32,099 bases of DNA. Source: an uncultured Cytophagia bacterium (GTDB taxonomy: Bacteria; Zhuqueibacterota; Zhuqueibacteria; Residuimicrobiales; Residuimicrobiaceae). Position 1 is the stretch's first letter. Each line of letters starts with the position of its first letter. Below are positions 3,219-29,126 of this stretch, piece after piece. The DNA is taken from NCBI GenBank assembly GCA_964554965.1, contig CAZKQR010000002.1, forward strand, positions 1 through 32,099, written 5' to 3'. A program made the translations under genes and the position numbers. Under the pieces are notes generated by a model that made no database searches, was not told the DNA's origin, and worked only from the letters and a program-made list of their open reading frames with translations.

Positions 3219-4267
3219 TCGGACTCTCCCGGCTTGCTGCGGCCGTTGGCGCTGTTCTTTTCATAGGCCTTGATGATCTTGCGAACCAGGGGCTGACGAA
3301 CGACATCGCGATCCGACAGATAGGCAAAGCCGATGCCTTCGATCCCGCGGAGAATGCTCTGGATCTGCACCAGACCGGATTCGGTCTTGTCCGGTAGATC
3401 AATCTGGGTGATGTCGCCGGTGATGATGGCCTTGGAATTATTGCCCAGGCGGGTGAGAAACATCTTCATCTGCAGCGATGTGGTGTTCTGCGCCTCATCG
3501 AGAATGACAAACGCGTTATTGAGCGTGCGGCCGCGCATATAGGCCAGCGGCACGATTTCGATGACGCGGGTTTCCAAAAGCCGCTTCAGTTTGTCGGCGG
3601 GCGCCATATCGTACAACGCGTCGTACAACGGCCGCAGGTAAGGATCGACTTTTTCGCGGAAATCGCCGGGCAGAAAACCGAGGCTCTCTCCCGCCTCCAC
3701 CGCCGGACGGCAGAGGGCGATGCGTTCCACCAGTTTATCCCGCAGGGCGGCCATGGCCACGGCGACCGCCATGAACGTTTTACCGGTGCCGGCCGGACCA
3801 ATAGCGAAGACGATGTCGTTTTGCCGGCAGATGGCCAAATAAGCCTGCTGCCCCTCGGTCCGGGGCTTGATCAAACCGTTGCGTGTGTAGACGATCACCT
3901 GATCGCTGTCCGCGGACTCGCTCTGCTCTCTGGTCTTGGACGCCAGATCGGTCACCCGGGAGACTGCGAGTATGTCGTCGGAAGAGATCAGGCCGTTGCG
4001 GTTGGCCAGATAGATCAGTTCCTGCAGCACCTTTTCCGCGCGATGCACCTGAGCTTCCATCCCGCGCAGAATGATCTCCTGACCGCGGGCGATGATCTGC
4101 GCGTCCAGCTCCTCTTCCAGCAGGCGAAGGTGGCTGTCCCGCATTCCGAACAGAATCAGGGGATCGATGCCTTTGAGGACTATTCGGCGTTCGTAATCGC
4201 CTTCCACACCTTTTTTTGCTGTCACAGTTCGGGTTCTCACCTCGGGTTCATCAGGGTATCGGCTCAA
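3215..4267 (-). CDS. phoH: PhoH-family ATPase (PhoH/YbeZ-like)
   Basis: 350-aa ORF with Walker A GPAGTGKTF, Walker B ILDEAQN and the PhoH signature ITGDITQIDLP. Start uncertain: the longest ORF begins at TTG 4267, and GTG 4225 (VTAKKG...) is preceded by GAGGTGA at a plausible spacing. Confidence 0.9.
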   Translation of the reverse strand: MSRYPDEPEVRTRTVTAKKGVEGDYERRIVLKGIDPLILFGMRDSHLRLLEEELDAQIIARGQEIILRGMEAQVHRAEKVLQELIYLANRNGLISSDDILAVSRVTDLASKTREQSESADSDQVIVYTRNGLIKPRTEGQQAYLAICRQNDIVFAIGPAGTGKTFMAVAVAMAALRDKLVERIALCRPAVEAGESLGFLPGDFREKVDPYLRPLYDALYDMAPADKLKRLLETRVIEIVPLAYMRGRTLNNAFVILDEAQNTTSLQMKMFLTRLGNNSKAIITGDITQIDLPDKTESGLVQIQSILRGIEGIGFAYLSDRDVVRQPLVRKIIKAYEKNSANGRSKPGESE

Positions 4268-4312
4268 CAGGCCGTGCGTGCGCCGCGCGGCAGGCCGCCG
4301 GGTGCACAGGGC

Positions 4313-4359
4313 TTAAAAAAAAACTCTCGATCCGGTTGTCGAACAACCCGGATCGAGAG
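4313..4359 (-). terminator. Rho-independent terminator of the lipoprotein/LysM unit
   Basis: On the minus strand: CUCUCGAUCCGG(G)UUG-UUCGA-CAACCGGAUCGAGAG, about 15 bp with one bulged G, followed directly by U9 (A-run 4315-4323 on +). It lies ~120 nt downstream of the LysM gene stop, which leaves a long 3' UTR. Confidence 0.65.
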
Positions 4360-4482
4360 TCACCTTTTATACAGCTTCCGGTCGCCACATCACCGAGTTC
4401 CATACGGTTCTGCCGTTTTGCGTTTCGAATCCGTTCAAGCCTTCGAAGAACGCCCGGATGCTGCCGGAAATGATCAAAGCGA

Positions 4483-5331
4483 TCAGCGCGGAATCACCAG
4501 CACCGTGTACGGATACAGGCGGGCGGGATTGCCGCCGATGATGGCTTTATTCTTTTCGTACAGCTTGGTCCACTTGGTCGGATCACCGAACACTTTGGGG
4601 TTCGAAGCGATCTTTTTCAGATAATCACCCTTGGCAACCAGATATTCATCCGGTCCGCATTCGCGATGAATCTTGAAGACCTGTTTCGGATAGATCAAGT
4701 CGGGATCTTTGATCTGATCTTTGTTATACGAATAGATGCGCATCCACTGATAGGGATTCGCATAGATATCCTTTTTGCCCGCGATCTTCCACAAATAATC
4801 GCCGACCACCACGGTATAGTTGTCGTACATGGCCTTCGGCATCTTGTTTTTGATCTGGGTGATTTTGCCCTCGATGGAAGCGATCAGATTCTGCATCTCC
4901 GTCAGGACGGAGATCTTGTTCTTTTTGGCTTCCGCCAGTTTGGCTTCCAACGCCGCCACTTCATCACTCCGTTTGAACAGCTCTTCCGGCGACAGGGCCA
5001 ACAGGCCGTCCGCCTGGCTGTCCAGCGCTTTCAACATGTTGCGATACGCATCTACACTGGCTTGGTCGGTGCCGATCATCTTGAGGATTTCGCCCCAGAT
5101 TTTTTCTGTTTCGGCGGTAATGCCGGCCAGTTCAGTTTTTAACGCGGCAACGCTTGATGCACATTCCTCAACTGCTTTCTTTGCATTGGCCTCTCTGGTC
5201 TGCCAGTCTTTGAGTTGAGCATTGTACTCATCCATGCTCATCTTTTCTTGTGCAGTCGCATAGGAACCCGAAAGCATCGTAAAGGAAAGCGCAAGCGTCA
5301 GAATAAGCAAAACTTTGCTGGAGAACTTCAT
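4483..5331 (-). CDS. secreted coiled-coil protein with two C-terminal LysM peptidoglycan-binding domains
   Basis: 282-aa ORF. Sec signal peptide (MKFSSKVLLILTLALSFTMLSGSYATA/QE), ~150 aa of heptad-like A/E/K/L-rich sequence, then two LysM repeats (YTVVVGDYLWKIAGK...IYPKQVFKI and YLVAKGDYLKKIASN...LYPYTVLVIP). Confidence 0.85.
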   Translation of the reverse strand: MKFSSKVLLILTLALSFTMLSGSYATAQEKMSMDEYNAQLKDWQTREANAKKAVEECASSVAALKTELAGITAETEKIWGEILKMIGTDQASVDAYRNMLKALDSQADGLLALSPEELFKRSDEVAALEAKLAEAKKNKISVLTEMQNLIASIEGKITQIKNKMPKAMYDNYTVVVGDYLWKIAGKKDIYANPYQWMRIYSYNKDQIKDPDLIYPKQVFKIHRECGPDEYLVAKGDYLKKIASNPKVFGDPTKWTKLYEKNKAIIGGNPARLYPYTVLVIPR

Positions 5332-5373
5332 TGACTCCCTCCGTAAAGGTTTAATTCAGACTCTTGTTCCCAA

Positions 5374-5646
5374 TTACCATGCAGCCAGTCTTTTCGCCAC
5401 ATCTACTTTTTCCTGCTTCATCGTTTCGAGCTTTTGTTTCGCTTCCGCTAACTGAGCTTGCAGCTTGGCTTTATCGCTGCTGCAGTCGGCGGCCTTTGTC
5501 TCGGCGGACAGGGCTGCGGCTTTGGCATCCTCTAATGCCTTCAGTTGCTTCTCATTGGGATGTTTGCTGCACCCAACGATCACCAATGCGACCAAAAGAA
5601 CAACGAATACGGCTAGCCGTATGCTGGTGGTGGAGAATCGCTTCAT
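5374..5646 (-). CDS. small coiled-coil lipoprotein
   Basis: ORF 5374-5649. The track start is TTG, and ATG 5646 follows AGGAGG by ~10 nt. Signal peptide with lipobox LVIVGC, then ~65 aa of A/K/E/L/Q-rich helix (KQLKALEDAKAAALSAETKAA...KLQAQLAEAKQKLETMKQ). Confidence 0.7.
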   Translation of the reverse strand: MKRFSTTSIRLAVFVVLLVALVIVGCSKHPNEKQLKALEDAKAAALSAETKAADCSSDKAKLQAQLAEAKQKLETMKQEKVDVAKRLAAW

Positions 5647-5781
5647 CAAGGCTACACCTCCTTTCGCATGAACTGCTCGTACCTTCTATTGCTACGGTGA
5701 TAAAAGATTTTTGCGTGGTATCCCCATTTACCATCCAGACACACTAACACCGTAAGAATAAGCGGTATCTCTCCTTGATCC

Positions 5782-5810
5782 ATTTTAAGAAAAAATTGGG
5801 TAATTGTCAA
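5782..5810 (-). promoter_or_regulatory. sigma70-type promoter for the lipoprotein/LysM unit
   Basis: Minus strand reads TTGACA (5810-5805), an exact 17-nt spacer (ATTACCCAATTTTTTCT), then TAAAAT (5787-5782). It sits in an AT-rich island. The implied leader to the ATG at 5646 is ~125 nt. Confidence 0.5.
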
Positions 5811-5824
5811 GAATATTCGTGTTT

Positions 5825-5852
5825 ATCAAACCCCTTTTTGCCCAAAAAGAGG
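5825..5852 (-). terminator. weak candidate terminator downstream of aspS
   Basis: Minus strand: CCUCUUUUU-GGGC-AAAAAGGGG (9 bp including one G-U pair), starting 9 nt after the aspS stop. It is followed only by UUUGAU, so the U-tract is poor. Confidence 0.3.
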
Positions 5853-5861
5853 AGAAAAACG

Positions 5862-7622
<1,761 letters not shown>

Positions 7623-7644
7623 ACTATTTTCTCACTTTTGATCA

Positions 7645-7677
7645 TAAATAAAAAAATGTCAGGTGGAAGCACCTGAC
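7645..7677 (-). terminator. Rho-independent terminator ending the TPR/ExbBD/TonB-like operon
   Basis: Minus strand: GUCAGGUG-CUUC-CACCUGAC (perfect 8 bp, 7677-7658) followed by AUUUUUUUAUUUAU (7657-7645). Confidence 0.7.
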
Positions 7678-7781
7678 CGCTTGCTTGTCTTTCGCTGATC
7701 CGCATGAGACAGCCGGGATGGGAGCAAAAGCTGAAGGGGTGCGCGACCGCGCCCAGGGTGCGGGGCGACGCTGCGGCCTTG

Positions 7782-8828
7782 TTAAAAACCGAAGGTATAA
7801 ACCTGGCGGAAAACGGCGTTGCCCAACCGCTCATCGATGGCGCCGAAATCATCCCATCGTGAAACTCGGGACAGGATGCAGCGTTCCACGTTTTCATTGT
7901 CGAGCGTCGAGGAGAGGATCGTCGCGTTGGTCACCGTGCCGTTGGGGAGGATGGTGAACCGCACGACCACCTTGCCCTTCAATTCGGGATTGCGTTTCAG
8001 CTCCCGTTCATAACAATACTGGATCGCCTGACTGTGGCTATAGACGATGGCCGACACCTCGTTGACGTCGCGCGCGCCGGCGACGGATCCGCCGCCGCCC
8101 TGCAGATGGCTCTCTTCGGTGAGAGGCGCCAGCTCGACGGTCTCGATGTCGCTTTTGCGGGTCACCACCGAACCGGAGCCCGCTCCGCCGGCAGACCCGC
8201 TGCGCGCGCCAATGCCGGGACCGGAGATCAGGTCGTGACTGTTGACGCCGCTGGTGGTGGTGCGGCCTCCACGCACGCCGGCGACGCCCGCTGTTCCGGC
8301 CGCCGTGCCGCTACTCCGGGTGGACCGGCCGCTTGCGGCCAACCGGTCGACGTTGTCAAACACCTGATCAAAGGCCTGAGAGGCTTGACCTTCGCTGGCC
8401 ACCACATCGCTTACCGTTTGATCCTGCGCCTGTCGGCTTCCAGTGGTAAGGATGGCCAACAGCCCCTGACCGCTGACCTCTGCCTCCGCCTGACCCACGG
8501 CCCCGCCGCCGGGTCCGGACGGCAGCCTCAGGCTGGAGCCGCCTCCAGCTGCGCCGCCGGACGTTCGCGTTGCTGCAGAGGAAACACCGCTCCGCTGCTC
8601 CGCGGAGCTCGGGCCTCCTGCCGCCGGCCGCCGTGCGGCGAGCGGCGCCCTTTTCCTCTGCACATCCACAGGCAGGTTCTCGATCATTCGATTGGCGATG
8701 CGCACCGTCTGCTCCTCCCGGTCCAGCACCAGCCGCGCGTAGCGGTCCTGAATGGTGCGGATCGTGCTGTCGGGCACGGTCACCGGCGGCGGATTGAACA
8801 GGAAATAGAGGACAAACGCCACATGCAA
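7782..8828 (-). CDS. TonB-like energy-transducer protein with AgmX/PglI-type C-terminal domain (5' end unresolved)
   Basis: 348-aa ORF from TTG 8828. Partial N-terminal hydrophobic helix, PPPV, a long Gly/Ser/Ala/Thr-rich low-complexity linker, and a C-terminal domain IQYCYERELKRNPELKGKVVVRFTILPNGTV...VERCILSRVSRW with two conserved-looking Cys. I recognise this domain as the TonB-related AgmX/PglI tail. The frame stays open upstream to 8933 and encodes the rest of the TM helix (see findings), so the true start is probably upstream of 8828. Confidence 0.8.
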   Translation of the reverse strand: MHVAFVLYFLFNPPPVTVPDSTIRTIQDRYARLVLDREEQTVRIANRMIENLPVDVQRKRAPLAARRPAAGGPSSAEQRSGVSSAATRTSGGAAGGGSSLRLPSGPGGGAVGQAEAEVSGQGLLAILTTGSRQAQDQTVSDVVASEGQASQAFDQVFDNVDRLAASGRSTRSSGTAAGTAGVAGVRGGRTTTSGVNSHDLISGPGIGARSGSAGGAGSGSVVTRKSDIETVELAPLTEESHLQGGGGSVAGARDVNEVSAIVYSHSQAIQYCYERELKRNPELKGKVVVRFTILPNGTVTNATILSSTLDNENVERCILSRVSRWDDFGAIDERLGNAVFRQVYTFGF

Positions 8829-9004
8829 AACAAACGAGGCAGACAGAATGAGCAGAAACTCGCGATCCAGTTCCTCAAACGGCTTTCGATAATATTTTTC
8901 CGGCAGGGCAGCGACCGTAAAAAAACTCCTCGGCTAATCACTCTCAGGCGCTCAGGTCGAGCGGCAGATCTCTTCGGCACGAAGCGTCGGACAAACCGCA
9001 ACGC

Positions 9005-9502
9005 TTATCCGCCTTTTTGATACACCACCAAACGCATGTTGGGAAACTCGGAACGGCCGCAGGTGGCCATCACCTTGAGCAAAGTGTTGAAGGGCAGCTT
9101 TTGATCGCCCTGAATGGTGACCTTGCCGGTGAACTTGATGCCATAGCTCTCTTCCATCTTTTTGGCCTCCTGCGCATACTTTTGCAGTGCCTCATACAAC
9201 CGGGGGATCAGCAGATCAGACTGGCTCGCCAGATTGCTCAACCGCTCCACCGGTTTTTCATTGACCAGGATCCACTCTTTAGATACGGTCACGTCCAACG
9301 CCACCTCCGGCAGCTGTTCGCTGGTGGATTTAGGCAGGGTCAGGTCCTGAGAGGGATGGGTCAATTGGCCCTCGATGTTGTAGCTTTTGATCAAGAACAC
9401 CAGAATGATGGTAAACATGTCCATCATGGAGGTGAGGTTCAACGCCACTTTGGTCTGACCGCCGGTGTTGTGCCGCTTGATGCGTGACGGTATAAAAGCC
9501 AT
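9005..9502 (-). CDS. ExbD/TolR-family biopolymer transport protein (paralog with the canonical TM Asp)
   Basis: 165-aa ORF. Short basic N-terminus, one TM helix LNLTSMMDMFTIILVFLI with Asp28 at the ExbD D25 / TolR D23 position, and a periplasmic domain ending ...FPNMRLVVYQKGG. Confidence 0.9.
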   Translation of the reverse strand: MAFIPSRIKRHNTGGQTKVALNLTSMMDMFTIILVFLIKSYNIEGQLTHPSQDLTLPKSTSEQLPEVALDVTVSKEWILVNEKPVERLSNLASQSDLLIPRLYEALQKYAQEAKKMEESYGIKFTGKVTIQGDQKLPFNTLLKVMATCGRSEFPNMRLVVYQKGG

Positions 9503-9522
9503 AGGGGGTACCTAATCGATTT

Positions 9523-10059
9523 CTATAAAATTCCCGCGCTGATGACCACTTCAGGGAACAACTCGTAACCGACATTGTTCACTTTGATGCTGCGCGCCGC
9601 ATCCATGGTGCTGACCAGGGTCTGATAGTCTATATTCATCTCGGCCTGAATGATGATCTTGCGGGTGTCCATCGGCGAAGTGACCACGCGCTGCTTGAGC
9701 TCATACAGTTTGCGATTGAGCGCATCGAAATCATAGCCTCCGTCGGGCCGCAGGCCGATGGTGGGCCCGCCGGTGGCCGGATCCCGAAGCACCGCTTGCG
9801 AGCTGGAGAGATAAAAACCCCGCGCGGTGATCGAAATGGTCAGATCCAGTCCCGGCTGCGCCTCTTTGGCCATCATCGTCTGACTCACCGGGCCGCCGGC
9901 GGCACGGGGCAGATTCAACTCGATGACGCCGTACTTGACGAATTGGGTGGTGGACAAAAGAAGCGGTATCAACACCACCATCATATTCATCACCGGAAAC
10001 AGGTTGAGCTCCACCTGTTCCGGTTCCAGATGACGACGTTGAGAGGGTTTATAAGCCAT
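9523..10059 (-). CDS. ExbD/TolR-family protein (paralog with Asn in place of the TM Asp)
   Basis: 178-aa ORF with the same architecture. TM helix LNLFPVMNMMVVLIPLLL, with codon AAT at 9987-9985 (Asn25) where ExbD/TolR have Asp. Its start is 2 nt after the ExbB-like stop. Confidence 0.9.
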   Translation of the reverse strand: MAYKPSQRRHLEPEQVELNLFPVMNMMVVLIPLLLSTTQFVKYGVIELNLPRAAGGPVSQTMMAKEAQPGLDLTISITARGFYLSSSQAVLRDPATGGPTIGLRPDGGYDFDALNRKLYELKQRVVTSPMDTRKIIIQAEMNIDYQTLVSTMDAARSIKVNNVGYELFPEVVISAGIL

Positions 10060-10061
10060 GC

Positions 10062-10712
10062 TTAACGATTCCCGGTTAACAGGTTAATCAGTTTCACCAT
10101 GTGCTCGTCGATCTCATCGATGATCTTGCCGGTCCGGTTGGTCAGATAGGTGTAGGCGAAAATCGTCGGAATGGCGATGAACAGACCCACCAACGTGGTG
10201 TTCATGGCCGTGGAGATGCCGGCCGCCAACAGACGGGCTTTTTCCGATGCATCGATGCCCGGCGCAGAAATCGAACGGAAGGCGATGATCAGACCGTAGA
10301 TGGTGCCGAGCAAACCCAGCAGCGTGGCGATGTTGGCCAGCATGGCCAGATAATTGGTCCGCGCCTGCAGCTTGGGGATGACTTCGAGCATGCCCTCATC
10401 CACCGCGTTCTGAATGGAGCGGAAATCCACCTGCTGCTTATTGACTACAGAGCGCAAGCCGCTGGCCACGACCTTGGGCAGCGCCCGGTCCTTGGCGCGC
10501 AGGCAGAGATCCAGAGCGTCCTCCAGCTTGCCGGCGGTAACCAGTTTCCGGATCTCTCCCATAAACTTTTCGGCATTGATGTCACTGCGGCCGAGGATAA
10601 AGATCGCACGTTCGATGGCGATCGCCACCGCGAACACCGCTGGAATCACCAACGCCCACATGTAAAAATAACCGGCAGCGTCCGGACTAAAGTTACGGAA
10701 TATCTCAGCCAT
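10062..10712 (-). CDS. MotA/TolQ/ExbB proton-channel family protein
   Basis: ORF 10062-10733. I place the start at ATG 10712 (MAEIFRNF...), preceded by GGGAGG at 5-6 nt. Three TM helices with the family-typical C-terminal pair (LANIATLLGLLGTIYGLI, AAGISTAMNTTLVGLFIAIP). Confidence 0.9.
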   Translation of the reverse strand: MAEIFRNFSPDAAGYFYMWALVIPAVFAVAIAIERAIFILGRSDINAEKFMGEIRKLVTAGKLEDALDLCLRAKDRALPKVVASGLRSVVNKQQVDFRSIQNAVDEGMLEVIPKLQARTNYLAMLANIATLLGLLGTIYGLIIAFRSISAPGIDASEKARLLAAGISTAMNTTLVGLFIAIPTIFAYTYLTNRTGKIIDEIDEHMVKLINLLTGNR

Positions 10713-10768
10713 GGAAGCCTCCCAAAAGAGCAATAAAAGAATGCGTGCCGAACGAATAAAATAAAAAG

Positions 10769-10797
10769 AATATATTCTTATTTCTTTTCTTTAGCAA
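10769..10797 (-). promoter_or_regulatory. candidate internal promoter ahead of the ExbB/ExbD/TonB-like genes
   Basis: Minus strand: TTGCTA (10797-10792), exact 17-nt spacer, TATATT (10774-10769). It lies inside the last codons of the 114-aa gene, and the -10 overlaps a perfect 14-bp palindrome AAGAATATATTCTT (10766-10779). An AT-rich context makes chance matches likely. Confidence 0.3.
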
Positions 10798-11122
10798 GAT
10801 TTTTTTTGGCCGTTTGCATGCGCGCCCCCTCCTCCTTTTCCCGAGCCACCTCGTCGAGAAACACCGGCCGCTGTTTGAGCTCGGCATCGAAGGAGCGCGT
10901 CAGAGGCGCCGCCTCGCCGACCTCCGGAGCCACCCGCTTGGGAATCAGGGTGACCGCCGGTTTTTCGATCACCGCTTCGATATGGATGTCCTCCAGGGAC
11001 ACCTCCGTGGCCGCCGACGGCGCCGGCAATCCCCTGGTCGAGTCAGCGACCGCCGGGGACGGTTCCTGGCTGCCGGCTATGGCCGCCAGGATCACTATGA
11101 ACAACATCAAACAGTGTCGCAT
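10778..11122 (-). CDS. small secreted protein, no recognised family
   Basis: 114-aa ORF. ATG 11122 preceded by GAGGCAGG. Signal peptide MRHCLMLFIVILAAIAGS, a Pro/Ala-rich mature part with the segment EDIHIEAVIEKPAVTLIPKR, and a Lys/Glu-rich tail. It lies between the TPR genes and the motor genes. Confidence 0.6.
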   Translation of the reverse strand: MRHCLMLFIVILAAIAGSQEPSPAVADSTRGLPAPSAATEVSLEDIHIEAVIEKPAVTLIPKRVAPEVGEAAPLTRSFDAELKQRPVFLDEVAREKEEGARMQTAKKNLAKEKK

Positions 11123-11204
11123 CCTGCCTCAATCCTTGATTCATTGCCCTGCGTCTCGCGGCTGCACCGCGGGCCTTGCCCATTACCGGCGCCGGTCGCA
11201 CCGG

Positions 11205-14200
11205 TTACCGCTGTCCGGCGTGCATCGAACTCGACCTCTCCCAGCCGGCGACCTGCCGCACTCGCAACTCTACCTGAAAAGAGGGCGGCCGGCCTTCACC
11301 CTTCATCACCTCCAGAGCGAGCAGATTCTGCCCGCTCACCAGACCCTCGGTGAGCTCCACTTCCATCATTTTGTTCTCCTCATCCGCGCCGTGAGTCTGC
11401 CGGATGAGCTCGCCGTTGAGGTACACTCCCACAGCATGAGCCGCCGGAAACGACACCCAGCCGCGGACCGGCAAACCGGTCACGGTAAAAAACTTTCGCA
11501 AAAACATTTTTGGAACCGGGATCAAGCGCACCACCAGGGAGTCGCTGGGATCGCTGACCGGCTCCAGCAGCCAGACGGCCCGACGGTCCAGCGGATCCAC
11601 CGCTGCAACCCGGGACCATCGCGAGGCGTCAAAATCCGCGCCAGCCCAACCGGTCATAGAGATGGACGCGGCTCGCCAGGTGGTATCGCTGACGGTCAGC
11701 TGCTCCTCGACTTTAAGGTTCATCGCCGCCGCATAGTTCTCCGGATCCACGGCCACCAGCAGAGTGAGAACCTCTTTCGCCGCCAGGCTGTTGATGGCGA
11801 ACTCTTTGGACAAACCATAGCCACGTTCCAGCACCTCTTTTTCTACATGACGCAGAGTCGACCGGTTGCTGTCAAAAGTAAACAGCGCTTCTTCAAAAAT
11901 GGGGTCTTCGCTCTGAGCAAAGCGGCGGCCGGCCAACGCGGCGCGTTCCTTGGCGTCCGCTGTAACCAGCTCGCATTGTTCGGCAAACTGAAAAACCCGC
12001 CACAGCAGGCTGTCCTGAAAAGCGACGGCTGTTGTTTCATCTACGCGCCAATGGGGGAGCATGAGCAAAGTCCGCCGGTAGCCCGCCAGAGCGCTGTCCA
12101 TGATGGCCTGGGAAAAATCCACCATGTTGGACATATCCTTGGCGTAGGTGGCCAGAGCATCGAGCTGGTCCTCCAGGGAGCGGCCGCTGTAGATCAGATT
12201 GGAATAATTGATGAATTGATTCGAAAGCGTCGCCAGTCCATCAACCGCCAAACGGCTGAAGCCTTTGGGAATGGCGCTGTGCGCGGCGAGCAGCTTTTTC
12301 CTGGACAGAGCGACCCAGGGCGAATCATAGCTCATGGAATCGGCAGAAAGAATGTTCGCCTGATGGCCGGCCAACGCCTGCTGCAGCAGCGGAATGGCGC
12401 CGATCTGCAGCAACTGCTTCTGATAGACCAGACGCTGAAGATCATTGAGCCCTTTGGGAACCGGAGCGTTCTGCACCGCCAGGGCGGACTGATACCGCCA
12501 TTCGCCCATGTTGTAGTGGACCTCTGTCAGCCTCTCCTTTGAACGGTCGATCCATTTGTCGGCGATGCGCAGCATGCTGTCCTGGGCCGCGGTGGCGGAC
12601 ACCTGAGCGCTGTCCGAGAGGCCTTTCGTCAGATCCAGGTAATAGCTCTCTTTCAACCGGGACAATCCCTTGATGGCGTTGCGAAACACTATGGCCGCGC
12701 GTTCAGAGAGAACCACGGCGGCGTCGTTGATCTCCTTCTGAGCGACGATCCGGCGGTTGCTCTCCATCTCCGGCAGTTCCTGAGCCGCCCAGGTTTCAGC
12801 GAACCGTTGATAAGCGACACCCACCAGGTGGGTGGCCTCATACACGCGGGGTGTGCCATAGCCGGCGCAGTTGCCCAGACGGCGGACGATCTCGAGCAGC
12901 AGCTCCTTTTTCTGCTCTTTCGCCGCCGCCAGATCAGCCGGCGGCAGACGGAAGGCAATGGCATCAAACGCCTCGGTTTGGATCGCGGCGATGGCGAACT
13001 CGGATTCTGCGGCATAATAATCGTTACGATCCAGGCCTTTGCGGTGCAGGGCCTCGCTGAGGCCGGCGGCCTGCAGGAATTCCTGCAGCGCTTTGCCCGA
13101 CTGGCCCAGCTGATGGAAATGGAGGCCGCGCAGATACGCGGCCTCCACCGTACGCGGGGATTCGGGAAATTTTTTGATAAAAGCGGACAGCGCGTCGAGG
13201 GATTTCTCCTGCTTGTTCATCCGCTGATAATACACTGCGATGTCAAACGCCGCATCATCGGCATATTCGTCGGTGGGAAAGCGCTGCAAAAACGAACGGT
13301 TGATCTTGATCGCGCTCTCCCAATCCTCTGATCGGGCGTAATACAGCCCGGCGTTGTACAGCGCGTCGCGCGCTTTGAGGGTGTCCGTCTGTATCGAGGC
13401 CAGGCGTTCGTAGGTCAGGGCGGCGTTGCGATAGTCGCGCACCTCCACATAGTCAAAGGCCAGGTTGTTCTGCGCATCGAGCACATAGGCCGATTTGGGC
13501 TGGGTCGTCAGCAAGGCCCCGTAGGTTTCGATCGCCCGGTTGTACTCGGTGGCCTTGTCGAATTCCAGCGCTGCGTTGAACAGCGCCAGGTCGGCGAACG
13601 CGCTTTTCGGCGCCTCGGTGACCACCCGGCGGTACTCGTTGCCCGCCTCCAGATGCTTGTTGTCCTCTGCCAGCATCTCCGCCGCCAGATAGATGGATTC
13701 CGCCAGACGCCGGCTGGCCCGGGTTTTGGTCTCCTCAGACGCGTCGCTGTTGGCGATGCGGCGGGCGATGATCTCCGCGCTGCGGAAATCCGCTTTGCCG
13801 AAATAGCTCTCCATAATGGCGCTGCGGGCCTGGGCGAACTCTTCGCTGCCCGGGAAATGACGCAGCAGGGTGTTGAAATATTTCAAAGCCTCTTTGTATT
13901 GATGGCGATGATAATACAGCGCGCCGGCGTTGGCGAGAAAAACCGGCGTCTCGGAATCGTGCGGGAACAGCTTGATATAGTTGTCATAGGCCTGAGCCAG
14001 CCGCTGCTCCTCGGCCGTGAGCTGGTGCGGCTCAAGCTTCATCCTTTCGCGGAACTTGACTCCCTGGGGATTTTTGGTCTCCTTTTGCAGATCCGCCAGC
14101 GAGACGGTCTGCTGCGCCGCCCGTTCGGCGTCGGTGATCTCCTCCAGCGCAGCGTCGCGCGCCAGGGCCACGGCGTTGGTGGCGGCGAAACGCTGATAGG

Positions 14201-15755
14201 GCGAATTCCAATACAGGTTGCTGACGCGGAGATATTCGTCGAAAGCCTGCTGCGTCTGCTTGAGTTTGGTGTCCATGGTCAATGCCATGTTCCAGTGGAT
14301 CAGCGCAGCGCTCGAGTCCGCGGCAAAGCCGTCCAGATATTTCCGGCTCTGCAGCACCGCCTGCTGAAAAAACTCGATCTGGCCGGTCTCCTGGCCGCGG
14401 TTCAGCAGCACGGTGATGTTGTCGCGCAGCGCACTCTCGACCTGCAGCAGCGCCCGTTTGCGCACCGCGGCGTCCGTATTCCGGTTCCACCAGTCGCTGC
14501 CTTGGCCATAGGTGGTGCACAGGACCTCGCGGCTGCGAAAGGCCTGCGCCTGATCCTCCAGGCGGCGATGACATTGCACGATGCGGTTCTGCACCACCGG
14601 CGCCAGCGGATCGTTCGGATACAGCGTCAGCAGCAGGGTGAACGCCTGCAGCGCGTTGGGATAATCCTCTTTCTCGTTGAAATAGGCGTCGCCGATGCGC
14701 TTGAGCACCTGAACGCCATAGTCGCGGCCGCCGATTTTCCGCAGATAGTCGGCCGCCCGGTTAGCGCCGCCGTAATCCAGAAACGAAAGACCAATGTATT
14801 CCACGGATTCATCCACCAGAGAGGGGTTGGTGAATTTCTCTTGCGGATCGAACTGCCGGGCTTTTTCGATGTCATCGGCAAGCCGGGTAAAATAAGAGAT
14901 CGCCCGCGGGTAGTCGTTCATCCGGTAGTAACACCACCCGAGGCGATACAGGGCTTCGTTGTAGCGCGGGCTGTCGTAAAAGGGAAGGATGCGTTCGAAA
15001 TAGGTGATGGCGGTCTCCACCGCATTCACCGGCGGATTAAAATAATACTCGCCTAGCCGCATTAATGCATCCGGCATGAGACTGCTGCGCGGAAAATCAT
15101 TCACCACTTTTTCATAAAACGCCCGGCTGCTGTCGGCAAAACCGGACTCCTCCATCAGAAAGCCGATGTTGAAAAACGCATCGTCCACCAGATCGCCGTG
15201 GGGATATTTTTCCACCACCGACACATAGAGGTCCAAAGCCTTGCCGATGTTTTTCTGCGGCTCTGTGGGTGGCGTCGGCTGCTGGCCGCGTTCGTAGAGC
15301 GCGTAGAGGCGGTCGTACTCTTGCATCTCCAGCTGAAAATCATCCTGCGCCTGCTCATAATACAGCTCGGCCAGGCGCATCATCACTTTGTCGCCGGATT
15401 TGCCGGCGGGTTTGCGCGACAGAAACAGTTCGCCGTCGCGGATGCCGCGCTTGCGCAGTTCCAGCCGTTCGTTCTGCAGCCGGGTGATCTCGCGTGCATA
15501 ATGACTGCGAAAGCGCTCCAGCTCTTCCAGCGAAAAGGATTTGATCACGGAATCGCGCATGGCAAGAAACGCGCGGGCTGAATCGCCGACGGTGCGGGTA
15601 TCGGCCGCCCGGCCCGGTCCACAGAGGGCGCACCCCCACAGCCCCAGCAGCAGCGCCCGGATCAGAGTGCGCCGTACGGTTGTCTGGCTGATACATTGTC
15701 CTGGTACCACAATGGCCTCGGTTATACGAATGGTCGCCGGCAGCATGGTCTGCAA
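11205..15755 (-). CDS. giant exported TPR-repeat protein with a C-terminal galactose-binding-like domain
   Basis: 1516-aa ORF from TTG 15755. Alternative starts are ATG 15746 and GTG 15710, the latter preceded by GAGG. Signal-like RRTLIRALLLGLWGCALCGPGRA/AD. Many BamD/CpoB-like TPR units with recurring helix-capping modules (KYPHGDLVDDAFFNIG, DFPRSSLMPDALMRLG, HFPGSEEFAQARSAI, RFPTDEYADDAAFDIA, KFPESPRTVEAAYLRG). The last ~160 aa are non-TPR. Confidence 0.85.
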   Translation of the reverse strand: MQTMLPATIRITEAIVVPGQCISQTTVRRTLIRALLLGLWGCALCGPGRAADTRTVGDSARAFLAMRDSVIKSFSLEELERFRSHYAREITRLQNERLELRKRGIRDGELFLSRKPAGKSGDKVMMRLAELYYEQAQDDFQLEMQEYDRLYALYERGQQPTPPTEPQKNIGKALDLYVSVVEKYPHGDLVDDAFFNIGFLMEESGFADSSRAFYEKVVNDFPRSSLMPDALMRLGEYYFNPPVNAVETAITYFERILPFYDSPRYNEALYRLGWCYYRMNDYPRAISYFTRLADDIEKARQFDPQEKFTNPSLVDESVEYIGLSFLDYGGANRAADYLRKIGGRDYGVQVLKRIGDAYFNEKEDYPNALQAFTLLLTLYPNDPLAPVVQNRIVQCHRRLEDQAQAFRSREVLCTTYGQGSDWWNRNTDAAVRKRALLQVESALRDNITVLLNRGQETGQIEFFQQAVLQSRKYLDGFAADSSAALIHWNMALTMDTKLKQTQQAFDEYLRVSNLYWNSPYQRFAATNAVALARDAALEEITDAERAAQQTVSLADLQKETKNPQGVKFRERMKLEPHQLTAEEQRLAQAYDNYIKLFPHDSETPVFLANAGALYYHRHQYKEALKYFNTLLRHFPGSEEFAQARSAIMESYFGKADFRSAEIIARRIANSDASEETKTRASRRLAESIYLAAEMLAEDNKHLEAGNEYRRVVTEAPKSAFADLALFNAALEFDKATEYNRAIETYGALLTTQPKSAYVLDAQNNLAFDYVEVRDYRNAALTYERLASIQTDTLKARDALYNAGLYYARSEDWESAIKINRSFLQRFPTDEYADDAAFDIAVYYQRMNKQEKSLDALSAFIKKFPESPRTVEAAYLRGLHFHQLGQSGKALQEFLQAAGLSEALHRKGLDRNDYYAAESEFAIAAIQTEAFDAIAFRLPPADLAAAKEQKKELLLEIVRRLGNCAGYGTPRVYEATHLVGVAYQRFAETWAAQELPEMESNRRIVAQKEINDAAVVLSERAAIVFRNAIKGLSRLKESYYLDLTKGLSDSAQVSATAAQDSMLRIADKWIDRSKERLTEVHYNMGEWRYQSALAVQNAPVPKGLNDLQRLVYQKQLLQIGAIPLLQQALAGHQANILSADSMSYDSPWVALSRKKLLAAHSAIPKGFSRLAVDGLATLSNQFINYSNLIYSGRSLEDQLDALATYAKDMSNMVDFSQAIMDSALAGYRRTLLMLPHWRVDETTAVAFQDSLLWRVFQFAEQCELVTADAKERAALAGRRFAQSEDPIFEEALFTFDSNRSTLRHVEKEVLERGYGLSKEFAINSLAAKEVLTLLVAVDPENYAAAMNLKVEEQLTVSDTTWRAASISMTGWAGADFDASRWSRVAAVDPLDRRAVWLLEPVSDPSDSLVVRLIPVPKMFLRKFFTVTGLPVRGWVSFPAAHAVGVYLNGELIRQTHGADEENKMMEVELTEGLVSGQNLLALEVMKGEGRPPSFQVELRVRQVAGWERSSSMHAGQR

Positions 15756-15770
15756 GTCAGCGGAGAAAAG

Positions 15771-18674
15771 CTAGGGCGTCTGCGTCCGGTTGAGTTGCTC
15801 TTCCCACCCTTCCTGCTCCTGCTCTTTCTTGTCGAAATAAAACTTGTCAAAATAGGTCTGCCGTTCCAGCTGCTCCAGTTGGATCTTGCGGGACAACAGG
15901 CTGTCCTGCAGTCTGCGAATGTCATTTTCATAGCCCTGCAGCCGTGATTCGATCTCGCTCCGGCGATCCGCCAGAACCGCTTCGATGCCTTTCAGCCGCT
16001 CGGCATATTGATCGATGGTGTTCAAACGGTTCGAACGTTCTTTGTAGATGATGTCAGTCAGGCCGAAACCGGCCAGATCGTTCCACAGCTCGGCATTGGC
16101 CGCCACGGGTTCGGGCCGGACGTCGGCCACGCTTTTGCGCAGCACGCTGAGGCGATCCCGCAGATGGCTCAGATCGGTCTCGAGCAGGTCCAGATCATTG
16201 CGGCTGCCGGCAGCCCCCTTATTCCGGCTGAGCCGCTGATACTCTGAGACCAGGTCCACATTGCGCTCCAGACGACGTTTTTCCAACTCGAGGTCGCGAA
16301 CCACTTCAGTCAGATTGGTGCGCTGATACTCCCGGCTCGCTTCCTTGGCGGCCAGCGGAAAATCGAGCAGGAAAGCGGTGTTCACCACCTCCTGGTCAGA
16401 GCGATAGGTTTCCAGAACACGGACGATCCGCGCCAGCTGTTTGCGGGCTTGCTCAGCCAGGTCCGGCCGGTTCTCCTGTTCCGCTATTTCAATCACCGCT
16501 TCCAGATCATCCAATTGGTTGAAAAGCTCGAGCCGTTCATCGTAATAATCCTGCAGCAGCAGGCTGCCGCTGTCCGTACGGCTGTTGACCACTTCCAGAT
16601 GGCCGCTGAGCTGTTCTTTGATCTTGTCGATCTCGGCGTACAGGGCCACCTGTTTTTTATCCAGAGCCTCACTCTCCAGGCGATTCAGCTCACGCTCATG
16701 GGCAGCCGCCGTCTCACGCTCCAGGTTGTAGGCTTGTTTTTTCTCCTTCTCATTCTGGCTGCGGACCACATAGCGATAGGCGTTCAACGCGCTCAGCGGC
16801 TGCTGCAGAAGCCGTTTGCAGTGGCCGGCCAGGGTCAGCGCTTCATAGGTGAATTGAGAGGCGAGAAAGTCGTTGAGCAGTTGGGAGGAGCGCGCCAGAG
16901 ACCGGTCATAATCGCCCAGGCGCAAACTGGCCCAAGCCTGGCCGATCAGCGCCTGATCATAGTTTTCAAAACCCTGAGAGACCCGTTCGAAATAGGAGAG
17001 CGCGTTTTGGAATTCGCCGCGCTGATAGTGGATCAGGCCCAATTTCAGCAGCGCGGTGTTGCGGATATAAGCGGTCTGCAGATCGGTCCACGGATAGCTG
17101 GCCTCGTCGGTCAAAGATTGTAGAATGGGAATGGCTTTGGCGAAATCATTTTGATTCAAATGCACAAGAGCGAGCAACATCTGCGCCGGCATATGGTATT
17201 CGGAAGAAGAAGGAATGGCGTCGATGGCGCGGCTGGAGGCAGCCAGATCGTTGTCGGTGAATAACCGGTTGGCCGCCATATAATGGGCGAAGGTTCGTTG
17301 CTGTGCATCGGCCTGCGGTTCCTTGAGCAGCCGGTCATAATGAGTGAGAAAATCCTGCTGTAGATTAAAAGTGGCGGCGTACTGCATCAGACGGATCAGG
17401 CTGGCGGCGCGATAGCGGCTTGAGCTGGTGTCCGCGGCCAGGGCCGAATAGAGATCGCGCGCCGTATCATAGGCCTTGCGGTGATATTTGCATTCCGCCA
17501 GATAATAATTGAGCGGCACAAAATAAGAATAATAGGGGCTGAATTGCGCTTTGATGCTCTCGATCTGGAACTCGGCCAGCCGGTACTCGCCGGTGGAAAA
17601 ATTCACCGCCAGGCTGCCGAGTTCGCGCTGCAGCATGCGGTCGCGCTGATCCAGCGTGGCGGATTCCAGCAGCCGTTTTTGAATGATCTGATATTCGGTC
17701 AGCCGCGTTCGGACGTCCAGCAGCCGCTCTTTTTTCCAAACGTCGATGTAATCTGAAACCGTGGGATAGGCGGTGAGAGAATAGCCGGCCTGGCTCAGCA
17801 GGTCGATGAGGTTTTTGTCCACGCGGTTGAGCAGAGCGGATCTGACCGCCTCCAGCCGCCGGGCTTCCTGGGCGCTGCCGTTCTCTTTCAGCGAATCCAC
17901 CTGCTGCATGACCAGGCTCAGGGATTGCGCTTCGTGGCGCAGCCGCAGCATCGTGGTGTCGGCTATGGGGCCCAGTTTGTTCCAGCCGCTGAACACCTGA
18001 AACAGCCGCTTCTGCTGCTCGCTGATGCTGTTCAGAGCGTCCGCGTTGTTCTGCTGTTCCGCCCGGCCCCGGGCCCGTTCCAACGCATCATAGATATTGA
18101 GCAGAGAATCCAATTCGCCGGTGTATTCATCCAACATGCCGCCGACGCGGCGGCTGCTGTAAATCCCTTTCTTATAGAGCGCAGGATCGTCCACCGAGGC
18201 CAGCAGATCCTGTTTGGTGCCGGCCACTTGATTCAGCAGACGTTCGTCGCCGCGGTAATCCGCCACCCGCTGCAGTTTTTGCAGATCGTCATAGACATCC
18301 ACCAGCCGCGCCAGTTCCTGCTGATAAGAGTGTACCAGCGTATCGCGGTGATCATAGATCTGACGAAAGCCGGCCTGATCAGCGGCCAGCCCTTCCGGTC
18401 CGCGGGCCTTGATCTCCGCATGGAGGTTTTGCACCAGTTGCAGCACCTGACGTTCCTGGGCCAACAGGTCGCCCACCGCATCCCGGGTCTTGTCGTTGAG
18501 ATAATAGCGTAGTCGTTCTTCAAAGGGTATTTCAGGAGAAGGGCTCGTTTGCGCCCAGGCGATAGAGCGCACGGCGGTCAGCAGGAGAAGGAAGAGCACC
18601 ACCCCCCCAGGGCTAAGCAGTATCGGAACCCGTCGCCGGATGCAGAACGCGGGATGAAAGCGGAATCGATTCAT
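15771..18674 (-). CDS. exported coiled-coil / TPR protein
   Basis: ORF 15771-18692 begins at GTG. I favour ATG 18674 (MNRFRFHP...), preceded by GGAAAGGG. Sec signal ...LLLLTAVRSIAWA/QT. Long E/R/L/Q-rich heptad regions at the N- and C-termini, with central TPR-like repeats (LGLIHYQRGEFQNALSYFERV, QAWASLRLGDYDRSLARSSQLL). Confidence 0.85.
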   Translation of the reverse strand: MNRFRFHPAFCIRRRVPILLSPGGVVLFLLLLTAVRSIAWAQTSPSPEIPFEERLRYYLNDKTRDAVGDLLAQERQVLQLVQNLHAEIKARGPEGLAADQAGFRQIYDHRDTLVHSYQQELARLVDVYDDLQKLQRVADYRGDERLLNQVAGTKQDLLASVDDPALYKKGIYSSRRVGGMLDEYTGELDSLLNIYDALERARGRAEQQNNADALNSISEQQKRLFQVFSGWNKLGPIADTTMLRLRHEAQSLSLVMQQVDSLKENGSAQEARRLEAVRSALLNRVDKNLIDLLSQAGYSLTAYPTVSDYIDVWKKERLLDVRTRLTEYQIIQKRLLESATLDQRDRMLQRELGSLAVNFSTGEYRLAEFQIESIKAQFSPYYSYFVPLNYYLAECKYHRKAYDTARDLYSALAADTSSSRYRAASLIRLMQYAATFNLQQDFLTHYDRLLKEPQADAQQRTFAHYMAANRLFTDNDLAASSRAIDAIPSSSEYHMPAQMLLALVHLNQNDFAKAIPILQSLTDEASYPWTDLQTAYIRNTALLKLGLIHYQRGEFQNALSYFERVSQGFENYDQALIGQAWASLRLGDYDRSLARSSQLLNDFLASQFTYEALTLAGHCKRLLQQPLSALNAYRYVVRSQNEKEKKQAYNLERETAAAHERELNRLESEALDKKQVALYAEIDKIKEQLSGHLEVVNSRTDSGSLLLQDYYDERLELFNQLDDLEAVIEIAEQENRPDLAEQARKQLARIVRVLETYRSDQEVVNTAFLLDFPLAAKEASREYQRTNLTEVVRDLELEKRRLERNVDLVSEYQRLSRNKGAAGSRNDLDLLETDLSHLRDRLSVLRKSVADVRPEPVAANAELWNDLAGFGLTDIIYKERSNRLNTIDQYAERLKGIEAVLADRRSEIESRLQGYENDIRRLQDSLLSRKIQLEQLERQTYFDKFYFDKKEQEQEGWEEQLNRTQTP

Positions 18675-18748
18675 GCGCTGCCCTTTCCACACACAAAAAG
18701 CGAAAACGGCGCGTAAGGGTGTTTGGCGCCGAATTCATATTTGAAATA

Positions 18749-18777
18749 ATATTAAAGATATTTTTATTCTCTGTCAA
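18749..18777 (-). promoter_or_regulatory. sigma70-type promoter of the TPR/ExbBD/TonB-like operon
   Basis: Minus strand: TTGACA (18777-18772), exact 17-nt spacer (GAGAATAAAAATATCTT), TAATAT (18754-18749). It sits in the only AT-rich island between the atpC stop (18809) and the first TPR gene. Confidence 0.55.
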
Positions 18778-18808: not shown

Positions 18809-19225
18809 CTAGCTTCGGGCCCGTTGTTCGGCCACGGTCAATCGATTGATGGCGCGTGCCAGAGCCGCCTGGGCCCTGGCAAGGTCGATATCCACTGTTC
18901 TCTCTTCGTGCAGCCGTTTCCAGGCGCGTTCTCGGGCAGCCTGAGCCCTTTGCACGTCGATCTCACTCGCCTCCTCGGCGGTTTCCACCAAAACCGACAT
19001 CTTGTTTTCCATCACCTCGGCGAATCCGCCGCTGGTGGCAAACCACTTTTTGCCGTTCTCGGTGTCCACCTCAATAGCGCCGATCTGCAGCGTGGTCAAA
19101 AACGGAGTGTGATTGTAGAGGATGCCGAAACGGCCGCCGATGCCCGGCGCCTGAACCTGGCGCACCGGGCCGGAGAAAACCACTCGCTGGGGCGTGATAA
19201 TTTCAAGCTTGAATAATTTTTCCAT
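18809..19225 (-). CDS. atpC: F0F1 ATP synthase subunit epsilon
   Basis: 138-aa ORF. N-terminal beta-sandwich (LEIITPQRVVFSGPVRQVQAPGIGGRFGILYNHTPFLT) plus a C-terminal helical hairpin. Last gene of the atp operon. Confidence 0.95.
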   Translation of the reverse strand: MEKLFKLEIITPQRVVFSGPVRQVQAPGIGGRFGILYNHTPFLTTLQIGAIEVDTENGKKWFATSGGFAEVMENKMSVLVETAEEASEIDVQRAQAARERAWKRLHEERTVDIDLARAQAALARAINRLTVAEQRARS

Positions 19226-19294
19226 AATATCTACAATTGGGTTAGGATCGCAATGGCGGACCGGACCGCTCCGCTGGCCGGCCCGTCACCGGAG

Positions 19295-21642
<2,348 letters not shown>

Positions 21643-21645
21643 AGA

Positions 21646-23178
<1,533 letters not shown>

Positions 23179-23187
23179 TCATAAGGT

Positions 23188-24239: not shown

Positions 24240-24256
24240 GAGGTAACCCTATTCCT

Positions 24257-24484
24257 TTATTTGAAGGCCAACATAATGCAGATGGCGGCGGCGAACAACG
24301 CCACGCCTTCGATCATACCGGCGGTGATGATCATGGCGCCGCGAATATCACCGGCGGCCTCCGGCTGACGGGCGATGCCGCTGATGGCGGCGCTGGCTAA
24401 TTTGCTGATGCCGTACGCAGCGCCGAAGGTGACACCGGCTGCGCCAAGACCGGCTGCCAAGAATGCAAATGCTTTGGGATCCAT
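24257..24484 (-). CDS. atpE: F0F1 ATP synthase subunit c
   Basis: 75-aa hairpin protein with loop ARQPE and the carboxylate in helix 2 (GMIEGVALF). AGGAGGA Shine-Dalgarno before the ATG. Confidence 0.95.
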   Translation of the reverse strand: MDPKAFAFLAAGLGAAGVTFGAAYGISKLASAAISGIARQPEAAGDIRGAMIITAGMIEGVALFAAAICIMLAFK

Positions 24485-24559
24485 ACTTCCTCCTGAATGA
24501 TGGGATGAGTGTTATGTGAATGGTTTGGTCGCTTCTCCTCCGGCTCGCCGCCACGGACT

Positions 24560-27428: not shown

Positions 27429-27481
27429 GTTGCCCTATCGGCTTTGATGGCCCGGCCGGCGGACGTCCCTGCCGCGCCCGG

Positions 27482-29093: not shown

Positions 29094-29126
29094 CCCGGGG
29101 CGTCCTCCATAAAGGAATAATGTGCT

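Follow-up and report, generated by a model that had tools for sequence, protein, structure and literature searches.

What kind of machine do seven tightly packed genes on the minus strand of this DNA specify? The operon occupies positions 7782-18777 of the window, by which we mean the whole 32,099-nt stretch that was analysed, and it encodes two very large exported proteins, a small secreted protein, a MotA/TolQ/ExbB-type channel, two ExbD/TolR paralogs and a TonB-like protein (Table 1). An earlier note on the same stretch had recognized in it the parts list of the Glt and Nfs cores of Myxococcus xanthus, stripped of the outer-membrane components. Sequence comparison supports this Glt/Nfs-core-like interpretation, and we consider it likely that the explanation holds in its entirety, namely that the operon encodes a stand-alone Agl-Glt/Nfs core complex that lacks GltE and forms a proton-driven envelope motor on a scaffold of tetratricopeptide repeats (TPRs).

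Kinship with the Agl-Glt core complex

According to Luciano et al. (2011, PLoS Genet, PMC3169522), the core complex consists of gltC, gltD, gltE, gltG, aglR, aglQ and aglS plus one gene without a myxobacterial homologue, and it occurs as a single locus of unknown function in Gamma- and Betaproteobacteria, Geobacter and Fibrobacter; related cores outside the myxobacteria had also been mentioned in the earlier note. Their Table S3 gives, for Fibrobacter succinogenes S85, a 746-aa GltC homologue (Fisuc_1892), a 1292-aa GltD homologue (Fisuc_1893), AglR (Fisuc_1894), an ExbD/AglS homologue (Fisuc_1896) and a 308-aa TonB-family GltG homologue (Fisuc_1897), with no GltE listed; for Methylibium, the same table leaves one gene between gltE and aglR unlisted. 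The Fibrobacter layout is that of the window operon, and the unlisted gene lies where the window has its small gene. The likeness to the core complex covers the single operon and the order of its parts, with a putatively GltC-like gene, a GltD-like gene and, before those of the motor, an extra small gene, then one TolQ-like and two TolR-like proteins, and a short GltG-like protein that has no FHA domains; the Fibrobacter locus is also devoid of GltE, as is ours. Judged against the published description, the window differs from Fibrobacter in the long coiled-coil arms of gene 1 (973 versus 746 aa) and in a scaffold with an extra helical domain and a β-sandwich (1516 versus 1292 aa).

A bridge to the named Glt proteins is provided by clusters outside KSB1 and Calditrichota. 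All cluster representatives were searched with ExbB, and the named relatives outside KSB1 (Zhuqueibacterota) and Calditrichota, full-length and 35-48% identical, belong to Delongbacteria, Raymondbacteria and Myxococcales; the identity of gene 4 to the ExbB proteins of the outgroup clusters is 40-47%. In Microvenator marinus (L084) the gene order is a TPR protein of 749 aa, TPR proteins of 1183 and 424 aa, a 77-aa protein, ExbB, two ExbDs and a protein of 475 aa. The 749-aa protein matches the GltC model with 61 bits, the 424-aa protein matches nearly the whole GltE model with 108 bits, and the 475-aa protein matches positions 224-647 of the GltG model with 130 bits. The remaining large protein, of 1183 aa and in the GltD position, is collinear with gene 2 over ∼1000 residues (BLASTP E 3e-55, profile E 6e-121). 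No GltD-type match for gene 2 itself was found in NCBIfam at E up to 10, and because YbgF and BamD are likewise the only models that the 1183-aa Microvenator protein matches, this database probably has no GltD model. Searches toward GltD and GltG of M. xanthus returned only TonB domains from the PDB, at E>0.06, and the homologue search in this direction returned Bradymonadales-type proteins only.

The other outgroup clusters are built on the same plan. L085 has TPR proteins of 699 and 1350 aa, a small protein of 129 aa, ExbB, two ExbDs and a TonB-like protein of 342 aa, and L086 has a 556-aa TPR protein, an extra ORF (open reading frame) of 112 aa, a 1333-aa TPR protein, a small protein of 120 aa, ExbB, two ExbDs and a TonB-like protein of 354 aa. 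A metagenome-assembled genome of the Myxococcales shows a TPR protein cut by the contig end, a 117-aa protein, ExbB, two ExbDs and a TonB-like protein of 335 aa. The Delongbacteria cluster (L087) directly follows atpD-atpC and comprises a 672-aa protein, a scaffold split into 555 and 1069 aa, an 89-aa protein, an extra ORF of 117 aa, ExbB paralogs of 225 and 230 aa in tandem, then two ExbDs, and a 344-aa protein, the split scaffold and the tandem ExbBs lying within 3794-9989 of that locus.

Profiles were built per gene from the KSB1 and Calditrichota orthologs and run on these clusters. The scaffold profile found its counterparts at E 6e-121 to 8e-118 and the transducer profile at E 3e-32 to 2e-25, and each ExbD profile selected the paralog at the same position in five outgroup clusters. 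The gene 1 profile matched the first genes of the outgroups at E 2e-43 (the 672-aa protein of Delongbacteria) to 1e-12; its match to the GltC-like 749-aa protein of Microvenator (E 1e-31) covers the central TPR region only, and its support is weaker in L085 and L086, where the TPR repeats of the giant protein lift that protein above the first gene in score. In four clusters the profile of the small protein found its counterpart (E 2e-7 to 1e-5); the 77-aa Microvenator protein lies beyond its reach and is tied to the family only by the motif hxIxGxhEKPxh ... [RK][ST]F..E[LI].

The fate of GltE differs among these loci. No gene of GltE type was found in the window operon, none of whose proteins matched the GltE model. 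In the scaffolds of L085 and L086 the last 400 residues are classical TPRs that match this model with 63-64 bits, which suggests a GltD-GltE fusion in these two and another C-terminal module in the window; the Delongbacteria scaffold also has the C-terminal extension of gene 2. The Microvenator cluster (L084 15621-16232) and the L085 cluster (13668-14714) each have, at a distance of no more than a few kb, Wza-like genes for polysaccharide export (Poly_export/SLBB). Such neighbors, which the window does not have, would fit a glycan-related output.

Within KSB1 and Calditrichota the operon is kept as a unit. We scanned one genome per species and obtained 80 loci, 61 of which were long enough to span the operon. 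All 61, from the two phyla, carry the same seven genes in the same order, six of them detected by BLASTP in 61/61, and the seven-gene arrangement is far beyond chance; the earlier note's question of whether relatives of the 1516-aa protein keep the same neighbors is thereby answered. A search with this protein found only full-length relatives of ∼1500 aa, and those with a named source belong to KSB1, to Calditrichota or to unclassified bacteria. The identity of the operon proteins to those of the window was then compared with the identity of AtpD, for six proteins, with the small protein left out. Five of the six gave Spearman coefficients of 0.79-0.95, and the TonB-like protein gave 0.48. Because the identities of the operon proteins fall in step with those of AtpD, we infer vertical descent. 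The core is found here in KSB1, Calditrichota and Delongbacteria, in every locus examined and with a vertical pattern, in contrast to its patchy distribution and horizontal transfer in Proteobacteria.

Motor, transducer and scaffold

Profile searches returned the families that the earlier note had predicted for each gene, the AgmX/PglI tail included. The channel protein, gene 4, matches Pfam MotA_ExbB with 91 bits, and it scores 72 bits with the TolQ model (cutoff 221) versus 36 with the ExbB models (cutoff 206); its nearest solved structures are TolQ (E 4.5e-10) and then ExbB (E 2.5e-5). By sequence it is nearer to TolQ than to ExbB, and its start is probably ATG 10712 rather than that of the listed frame. 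Genes 5 and 6 match Pfam ExbD with 52 and 56 bits and the TolR model with 34 and 24 bits (cutoff 127).

These two paralogs differ at the proton-binding position. The transmembrane segment of gene 5 (9979-9999) reads PVMNMMV, with Asn where the proton-binding Asp is expected (P..D). Counted by hand on the printed alignment, ∼60 of 69 ExbD1 orthologs have Asn and 7 have Asp, and a KSB1 subclade (L026, L030, L031, L034, L038, L039 and L041) carries Asp in both paralogs. In all five outgroup clusters the corresponding residue of the first ExbD is Ser, Asn or Cys, never Asp. The transmembrane segment of gene 6 (9416-9436), in contrast, contains SMMDMFT, which shows no variation among 68 orthologs or in any of the outgroups. 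As paralog 1 is without Asp and paralog 2 has it in the outgroups as well, a stator heterodimer with one protonatable subunit would appear to be an old and conserved property of the family.

Gene 7 is composed of ∼20 cytoplasmic residues, a transmembrane helix with the motif SxxxH, a linker of ∼200 aa rich in Gly, Ser and Ala, and a C-terminal domain that matches the AgmX/PglI model NF033768 with 90.4 bits (cutoff 40). It also passes TIGR01352 for TonB C termini (33 bits, cutoff 27), falls just under the cutoff of Pfam TonB_C (23.9 versus 24.6) and has no match to the TolA model. The GltG model is matched over positions 448-626 with 81 bits, and because this lies below the equivalog cutoff of 650 we regard the protein as of GltG type but not as GltG itself. 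The linker holds the motif GLLAILT, in the form GLLxxL(S/T) common to the outgroup transducers, and SxxxH is present in the KSB1 orthologs and missing in Calditrichota and in the outgroups.

The tail and the linker of gene 7 agree with the earlier description; the listed start needs a correction. The listed start, TTG 8828, falls in the middle of the transmembrane helix, and a conserved cytoplasmic motif (LPEKYYRKPFEELDREF) together with the first half of the helix, SxxxH included, lies in frame upstream of it. Between the preceding stop and this conserved N-terminal motif there is no in-frame ATG, GTG or TTG. In the window, AGGAG at 8926-8930 is followed 7 nt on by ACG 8918, and GGAG with ACG 6-8 nt further on is found in the window and in L002, L003, L005 and L037, with differing adjoining codons; these four, whose scaffold proteins are 50-93% identical, were treated as independent genomes. 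At the start position of L007 and L009 there is ATT in one and ATA in the other, the spacing from AGGAG or GGAG being 5-8 nt over all seven genomes, and more distant relatives have ordinary start codons. Gene 7 thus most probably starts at ACG 8918, giving a protein of 378 aa, as judged from these alignments. This looks like conserved near-cognate initiation, ACG being very unusual in bacteria, and so poor a start codon would hold the amount of transducer well below that of the motor. A frameshift in the run of seven T at ∼8919-8925 was considered as the cause of the missing start and rejected, since five genomes keep the frame and the arrangement of Shine-Dalgarno sequence and ACG, which makes a frameshift error unlikely, and the run itself varies. 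An exact look-up of the 348-aa listed protein found no record, most likely because the listed start is wrong.

The scaffold, gene 2, is a chain of many TPR modules of the YbgF/CpoB and BamD types, as the earlier note had said, with 117 bits for the YbgF/CpoB model TIGR02795 (cutoff 90), summed over several stretches, and 91 bits for the BamD model. It extends ∼490 residues past the GltD-like part, and its non-TPR C terminus could be modelled well: for residues 961-1516, AlphaFold2 gave a predicted local distance difference test score (pLDDT) of 90 from a 31-sequence alignment. In this model seven helices of ∼35-44 residues each, which make up a helical-hairpin domain, are followed by a β-sandwich at ∼1349-1502. 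No Pfam model matches the sandwich. Among natural folds, Foldseek matched it best (E ∼6e-4) to the sugar-binding domains at the N terminus of GH2 glycosidases, on which ∼160-170 columns superpose at 4.5-5 Å, and by this similarity of fold the domain may be sugar-binding-like and have a glycan role. Four Trp residues of gene 2 are invariant (W1360, W1370, W1395 and W1505).

Gene 1 more likely starts at ATG 18674 than at GTG 18692. It has a signal peptide ending in AWA-Q and central TPRs only (Pfam, residues 499-605), and it matches the GltC model with 40 bits against a cutoff of 450. AlphaFold2 without an alignment predicted an all-helical protein with long helices at both ends (pLDDT 43, used for secondary structure only), in keeping with the heptad-rich ends that had been described, and the protein can be pictured as long helical arms that flank a TPR core. 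Both large proteins carry an ordinary signal of the signal-peptidase-I type without a lipobox. Lipoprotein status was considered and rejected for both, a lipobox-like motif being present in 2/75 and 4/67 orthologs.

The 114-aa protein of gene 3 remains, as the earlier note had found, without a family: nothing in Pfam or NCBIfam matched it. Its strand motif, LEDIHIEAVIEKPAVTLIPKR ... RSFDAEL, is conserved, and its tail is rich in Lys. Its position is filled in 61/61 loci, 50 by BLASTP and 11 by position, and nearly all of the latter show the motifs EKP(x)V and xSF..E by eye, the call in L063 being weaker. Motif and position recur in the Myxococcota, Delongbacteria and Microvenator clusters and in L085 and L086. 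As an observation apart, L063 (Calditrichia) has at 14839-15256 an extra, apparently frame-broken ORF between scaffold and small gene that bears a classical TonB C-terminal signature (PIYPQSAIDAGIEGTV...), the sole case of such an insertion among the loci.

Transcription signals and genomic setting

The seven ORFs lie between one promoter and one terminator, with intergenic gaps of 2-86 nt, so that the description of a tightly spaced, co-directional unit bounded by a near-consensus promoter and a strong terminator stood up throughout.

Table 1. Coordinates of the operon genes and of the signals around them in the window.
Feature	Position	Strand	Description
Promoter	18749-18777	-	sigma-70-type, TTGACA-17-TAATAT; 10/12 consensus positions
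Leader hairpin	18695-18731	-	CGGCGC, 13-nt loop, GCGCCG, then T-run TTTTCGCTTTTT; between promoter and gene 1
Gene 1	15771-18692	-	973 aa, exported coiled-coil/TPR protein, GltC position
Gene 2	11205-15755	-	1516 aa, exported TPR scaffold, GltD position
Gene 3	10778-11122	-	114 aa, small secreted protein
Gene 4	10062-10733	-	223 aa as listed, MotA/TolQ/ExbB channel
Gene 5	9523-10059	-	178 aa, ExbD/TolR paralog 1
Gene 6	9005-9502	-	165 aa, ExbD/TolR paralog 2
Gene 7	7782-8828 as listed; 7782-8918 if ACG start	-	348 aa as listed; 378 aa if ACG start; TonB-like, GltG-type
Intrinsic terminator	7645-7677	-	GTCAGGTG-CTTC-CACCTGAC, then ATTTTTTTATTT

The promoter (18777-18749) scored highest among 10 promoter-like sites in the region, where 4.2 were expected. 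The pattern TTGAC(A/T)-17-TAnnnT recurs at the same spot 5' of gene 1 in L001-L005, L007, L009, L017, L037 and L045 and in many more distant KSB1 loci. The terminator has a GC-rich stem of 8 bp (7677-7658) with its T-run after the stem. The leader hairpin is kept within the clade of the window, where RNAalifold gave 7 pairs with slight covariation, and this inverted repeat may act as an attenuator, if it works as an RNA structure, or as a protein operator, if it works as a DNA palindrome. At the leader position of L045 there is a hairpin of another sequence, which did not align. A weaker promoter-like site, TTGCTA-17-TATATT (10769-10797, minus strand, 9/12), overlaps the 3' end of the small gene ahead of ExbB and may provide the motor genes with an internal promoter.

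Upstream of the operon stands the F1Fo ATP synthase operon (atpB ... atpA, G, D, C; 18809-25525), of which atpD and atpC come last and which ends at 18809; downstream stands aspS. In many loci, where the contig reaches, atpAGDC are kept on one side and aspS, the LysM gene, PhoH and the 7TM-HD gene on the other, and the adjacency to atp holds in many KSB1 and Calditrichota loci and in a Delongbacteria genome (L087 1-1406). Farther out, the window has genes for an M23 peptidase, ParB and ParA (26496-29198) on one flank and for a LysM-domain protein, PhoH and a seven-transmembrane (7TM) receptor with an HD hydrolase (891-5331) on the other, the latter group being syntenic in many related genomes. 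A 798-aa ORF (29152-31548, minus strand) overlaps the start of parA by 47 nt and has no Pfam match at E<=0.001. Between the LysM gene and aspS lies an AT-rich stretch of ∼530 nt with no assigned gene (5332-5861, GC ∼0.49 versus 0.58 for the window). Scans of the window with Rfam and for tRNAs, this stretch included, gave no match. No TonB-dependent receptor, TolB or Pal is encoded among the proteins of the 32-kb window, which agrees with the earlier note, and none of the 80 loci has a receptor gene adjoining the operon.

Proposed action and place in the envelope

The mechanism that we propose is drawn by analogy with TolQRA, with ExbBD-TonB and with the Agl-Glt model. Five TolQ-like ExbB subunits would surround one ExbD1-ExbD2 heterodimer in the inner membrane, and proton flow would drive this 5:2 motor with the protonatable Asp on ExbD2 only. 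The motor would act on the transmembrane helix of the TonB-like protein, whose disordered linker would cross the peptidoglycan and bind along the 1516-aa TPR scaffold, and whose AgmX/PglI domain would dock there, its sheet completed by the conserved strand of the small secreted protein. The 973-aa GltC-like protein would connect the scaffold toward the outer membrane with its coiled-coil arms, and the β-sandwich of the scaffold may hold a glycan, which could be peptidoglycan or a polysaccharide of the cell surface. Most likely the machine would exert force on an envelope polymer or on an attachment in the outer membrane, or move it in a directed way, such that it would serve basal, housekeeping surface transport or tethering rather than as an engine of motility.

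Several elements of this proposal have published counterparts. In an AlphaFold model of 2025 (PMC11761067), AglR5-AglQ-AglS-GltG resembles TolQ5R2-TolA, GltG winds its disordered linker around GltD, the TPR pillar, and its C-terminal domain is joined by one strand of GltF, a protein that is small and disordered. Wartel et al. (2013, PLoS Biol, PMC3858216) considered the seven-protein core a possible "basal transport machinery" and reported that Agl-Nfs moves glycan strands round the spore, for which the proton-motive force and D28 of AglQ are needed. The window shares with these M. xanthus machines a motor of the AglR/Q/S type, a GltG-type transducer with the AgmX/PglI domain, a TPR pillar of the GltD type and, where GltF would be, a small protein that is mostly disordered. 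Clusters of the Planctomycetes-Verrucomicrobia-Chlamydiae (PVC) group (Mol Biol Evol 2025, PMC12204202) also combine a TPR gene, one TolQ-like gene, two unlike TolR genes and a membrane-anchored transducer, but the head of that transducer is a vWA domain and not of TonB/AgmX type, and no giant GltD-like scaffold is described for them.

Other observations weigh against a stand-alone Agl-Glt core with this mode of action. Experiments on the family are confined to Myxococcus, and each mechanistic step is taken over by analogy. The scores with the GltG and GltC equivalog models fall far below their cutoffs (81 of 650 and 40 of 450 bits), GltE is absent from the operon, and no outer-membrane partner is encoded nearby. 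The proposed link to Myxococcus runs through NCBIfam models and the tables of Luciano et al., and for GltD it passes through the Microvenator protein. The signals of the scaffold and of gene 1 are of the signal-peptidase-I type, in contrast to the Cys1 start described for GltD and GltE, and the SxxxH motif is restricted to KSB1. Glycan binding by the sandwich is suggested by similarity of fold, at E ∼6e-4. Finally, conservation throughout a phylum beside the ATP synthase genes fits a Tol-like housekeeping system equally well.

This last point leads to a role that we regard as possible though doubtful, in which the operon functionally replaces Tol-Pal as the outer-membrane tethering and constriction system of the lineage, with a TolQR-like motor and a TolA-like transducer acting via the CpoB-like modules. 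Such a proposal concerns the role and is compatible with homology to the Glt core. It would account for a channel whose best-matching characterized family is TolQ, for the TolR-like stators and the SxxxH transducer, for a 1516-aa protein made of YbgF/CpoB-type modules that passes TIGR02795, and for the vertical pattern in every KSB1 and Calditrichota locus examined, where the operon sits between atp and aspS, as it sits after atpDC in Delongbacteria; the sugar-binding-like C-terminal domain could, in that case, bind peptidoglycan. Yet TolB and Pal are missing in and near the operon, there are two unlike TolR paralogs instead of one, one of them without Asp, and the C-terminal domain of the transducer belongs to the AgmX/PglI subfamily and does not match TolA. 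The YbgF score, moreover, sums repeated TPR modules that are part of a scaffold six times the size of CpoB. We find it improbable that the operon is instead the housekeeping TonB system, an ExbB-ExbD-TonB energy transducer for TonB-dependent receptors, even though the gene families and the TonB-like C-terminal fold are shared, TIGR01352 is passed and the helix has the SxxxH of TonB and TolA. The phylum does need such a system, as Caldithrix abyssi has TonB-dependent receptors, for example BtuB and a thiamine receptor (PMC5317091); neither the paper on this genome nor the supplement lists a locus tag for ExbB, ExbD, TonB or Tol. Nevertheless, Pfam TonB_C is just missed, the linker is not Pro-rich and ends in a domain of the AgmX/PglI subfamily, the TolQ score of the channel is twice that of the ExbB models, and SxxxH is missing in the Calditrichota orthologs. 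The operon has no receptor beside it in the 80 loci and always brings two giant periplasmic proteins and a small one, which would be useless to a TonB system.

A complete gliding machine like Agl-Glt of Myxococcus is the least credible reading and, in our estimate, very improbable, despite motor, transducer and scaffold genes that appear homologous to those of Agl-Glt. The window has no relatives of the GltA/B/H/K barrels, the adhesin CglB, GltI, GltJ or AglZ, and neither GltE nor a cytoplasmic platform; its transducer is without the cytoplasmic FHA domains of GltG and its scaffolds, unlike those of M. xanthus, are non-lipoproteins. Core genes alone are insufficient for motility (Luciano et al., 2011, PMC3169522), and for C. 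abyssi flagellar genes and occasional tumbling motility are reported, and no gliding machinery of the Bacteroidetes type (PMC5317091).

The stand-alone Agl/Glt core has been known since 2011, and so has its GltE-less layout in F. succinogenes. What is added here for the stand-alone GltE-less core is the ExbD1 without Asp, the β-sandwich of the scaffold, the strand motif of the small protein and the apparent ACG start. The presence of the operon in every locus examined in at least two phyla, its vertical pattern and its place beside the ATP synthase genes argue for a basic and not an accessory function in the envelope. This matters because the core is the presumed ancestor of the gliding and spore-coat machines of Myxococcus. 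The sugar-binding-like domain of the scaffold, the strand motif of the small subunit and an Asp-less stator paralog kept across phyla offer experimental handles, and with cultured carriers such as C. abyssi, and F. succinogenes with its sister layout, the function of the core becomes testable outside Myxococcus. Should the boldest version of these ideas be correct, which we think rather unlikely, the operon of KSB1, Calditrichota and Delongbacteria would represent Agl/Glt in its ancestral form, passed on vertically and with a housekeeping task: a proton-driven substitute for Tol-Pal that grips an envelope glycan by way of the sugar-binding-like domain of the scaffold, on an asymmetric stator with a single protonatable ExbD subunit. 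The gliding and spore-coat machines of the myxobacteria would then have been derived from envelope maintenance of the type found in the Fibrobacteres-Chlorobi-Bacteroidetes (FCB) group, and not the reverse.

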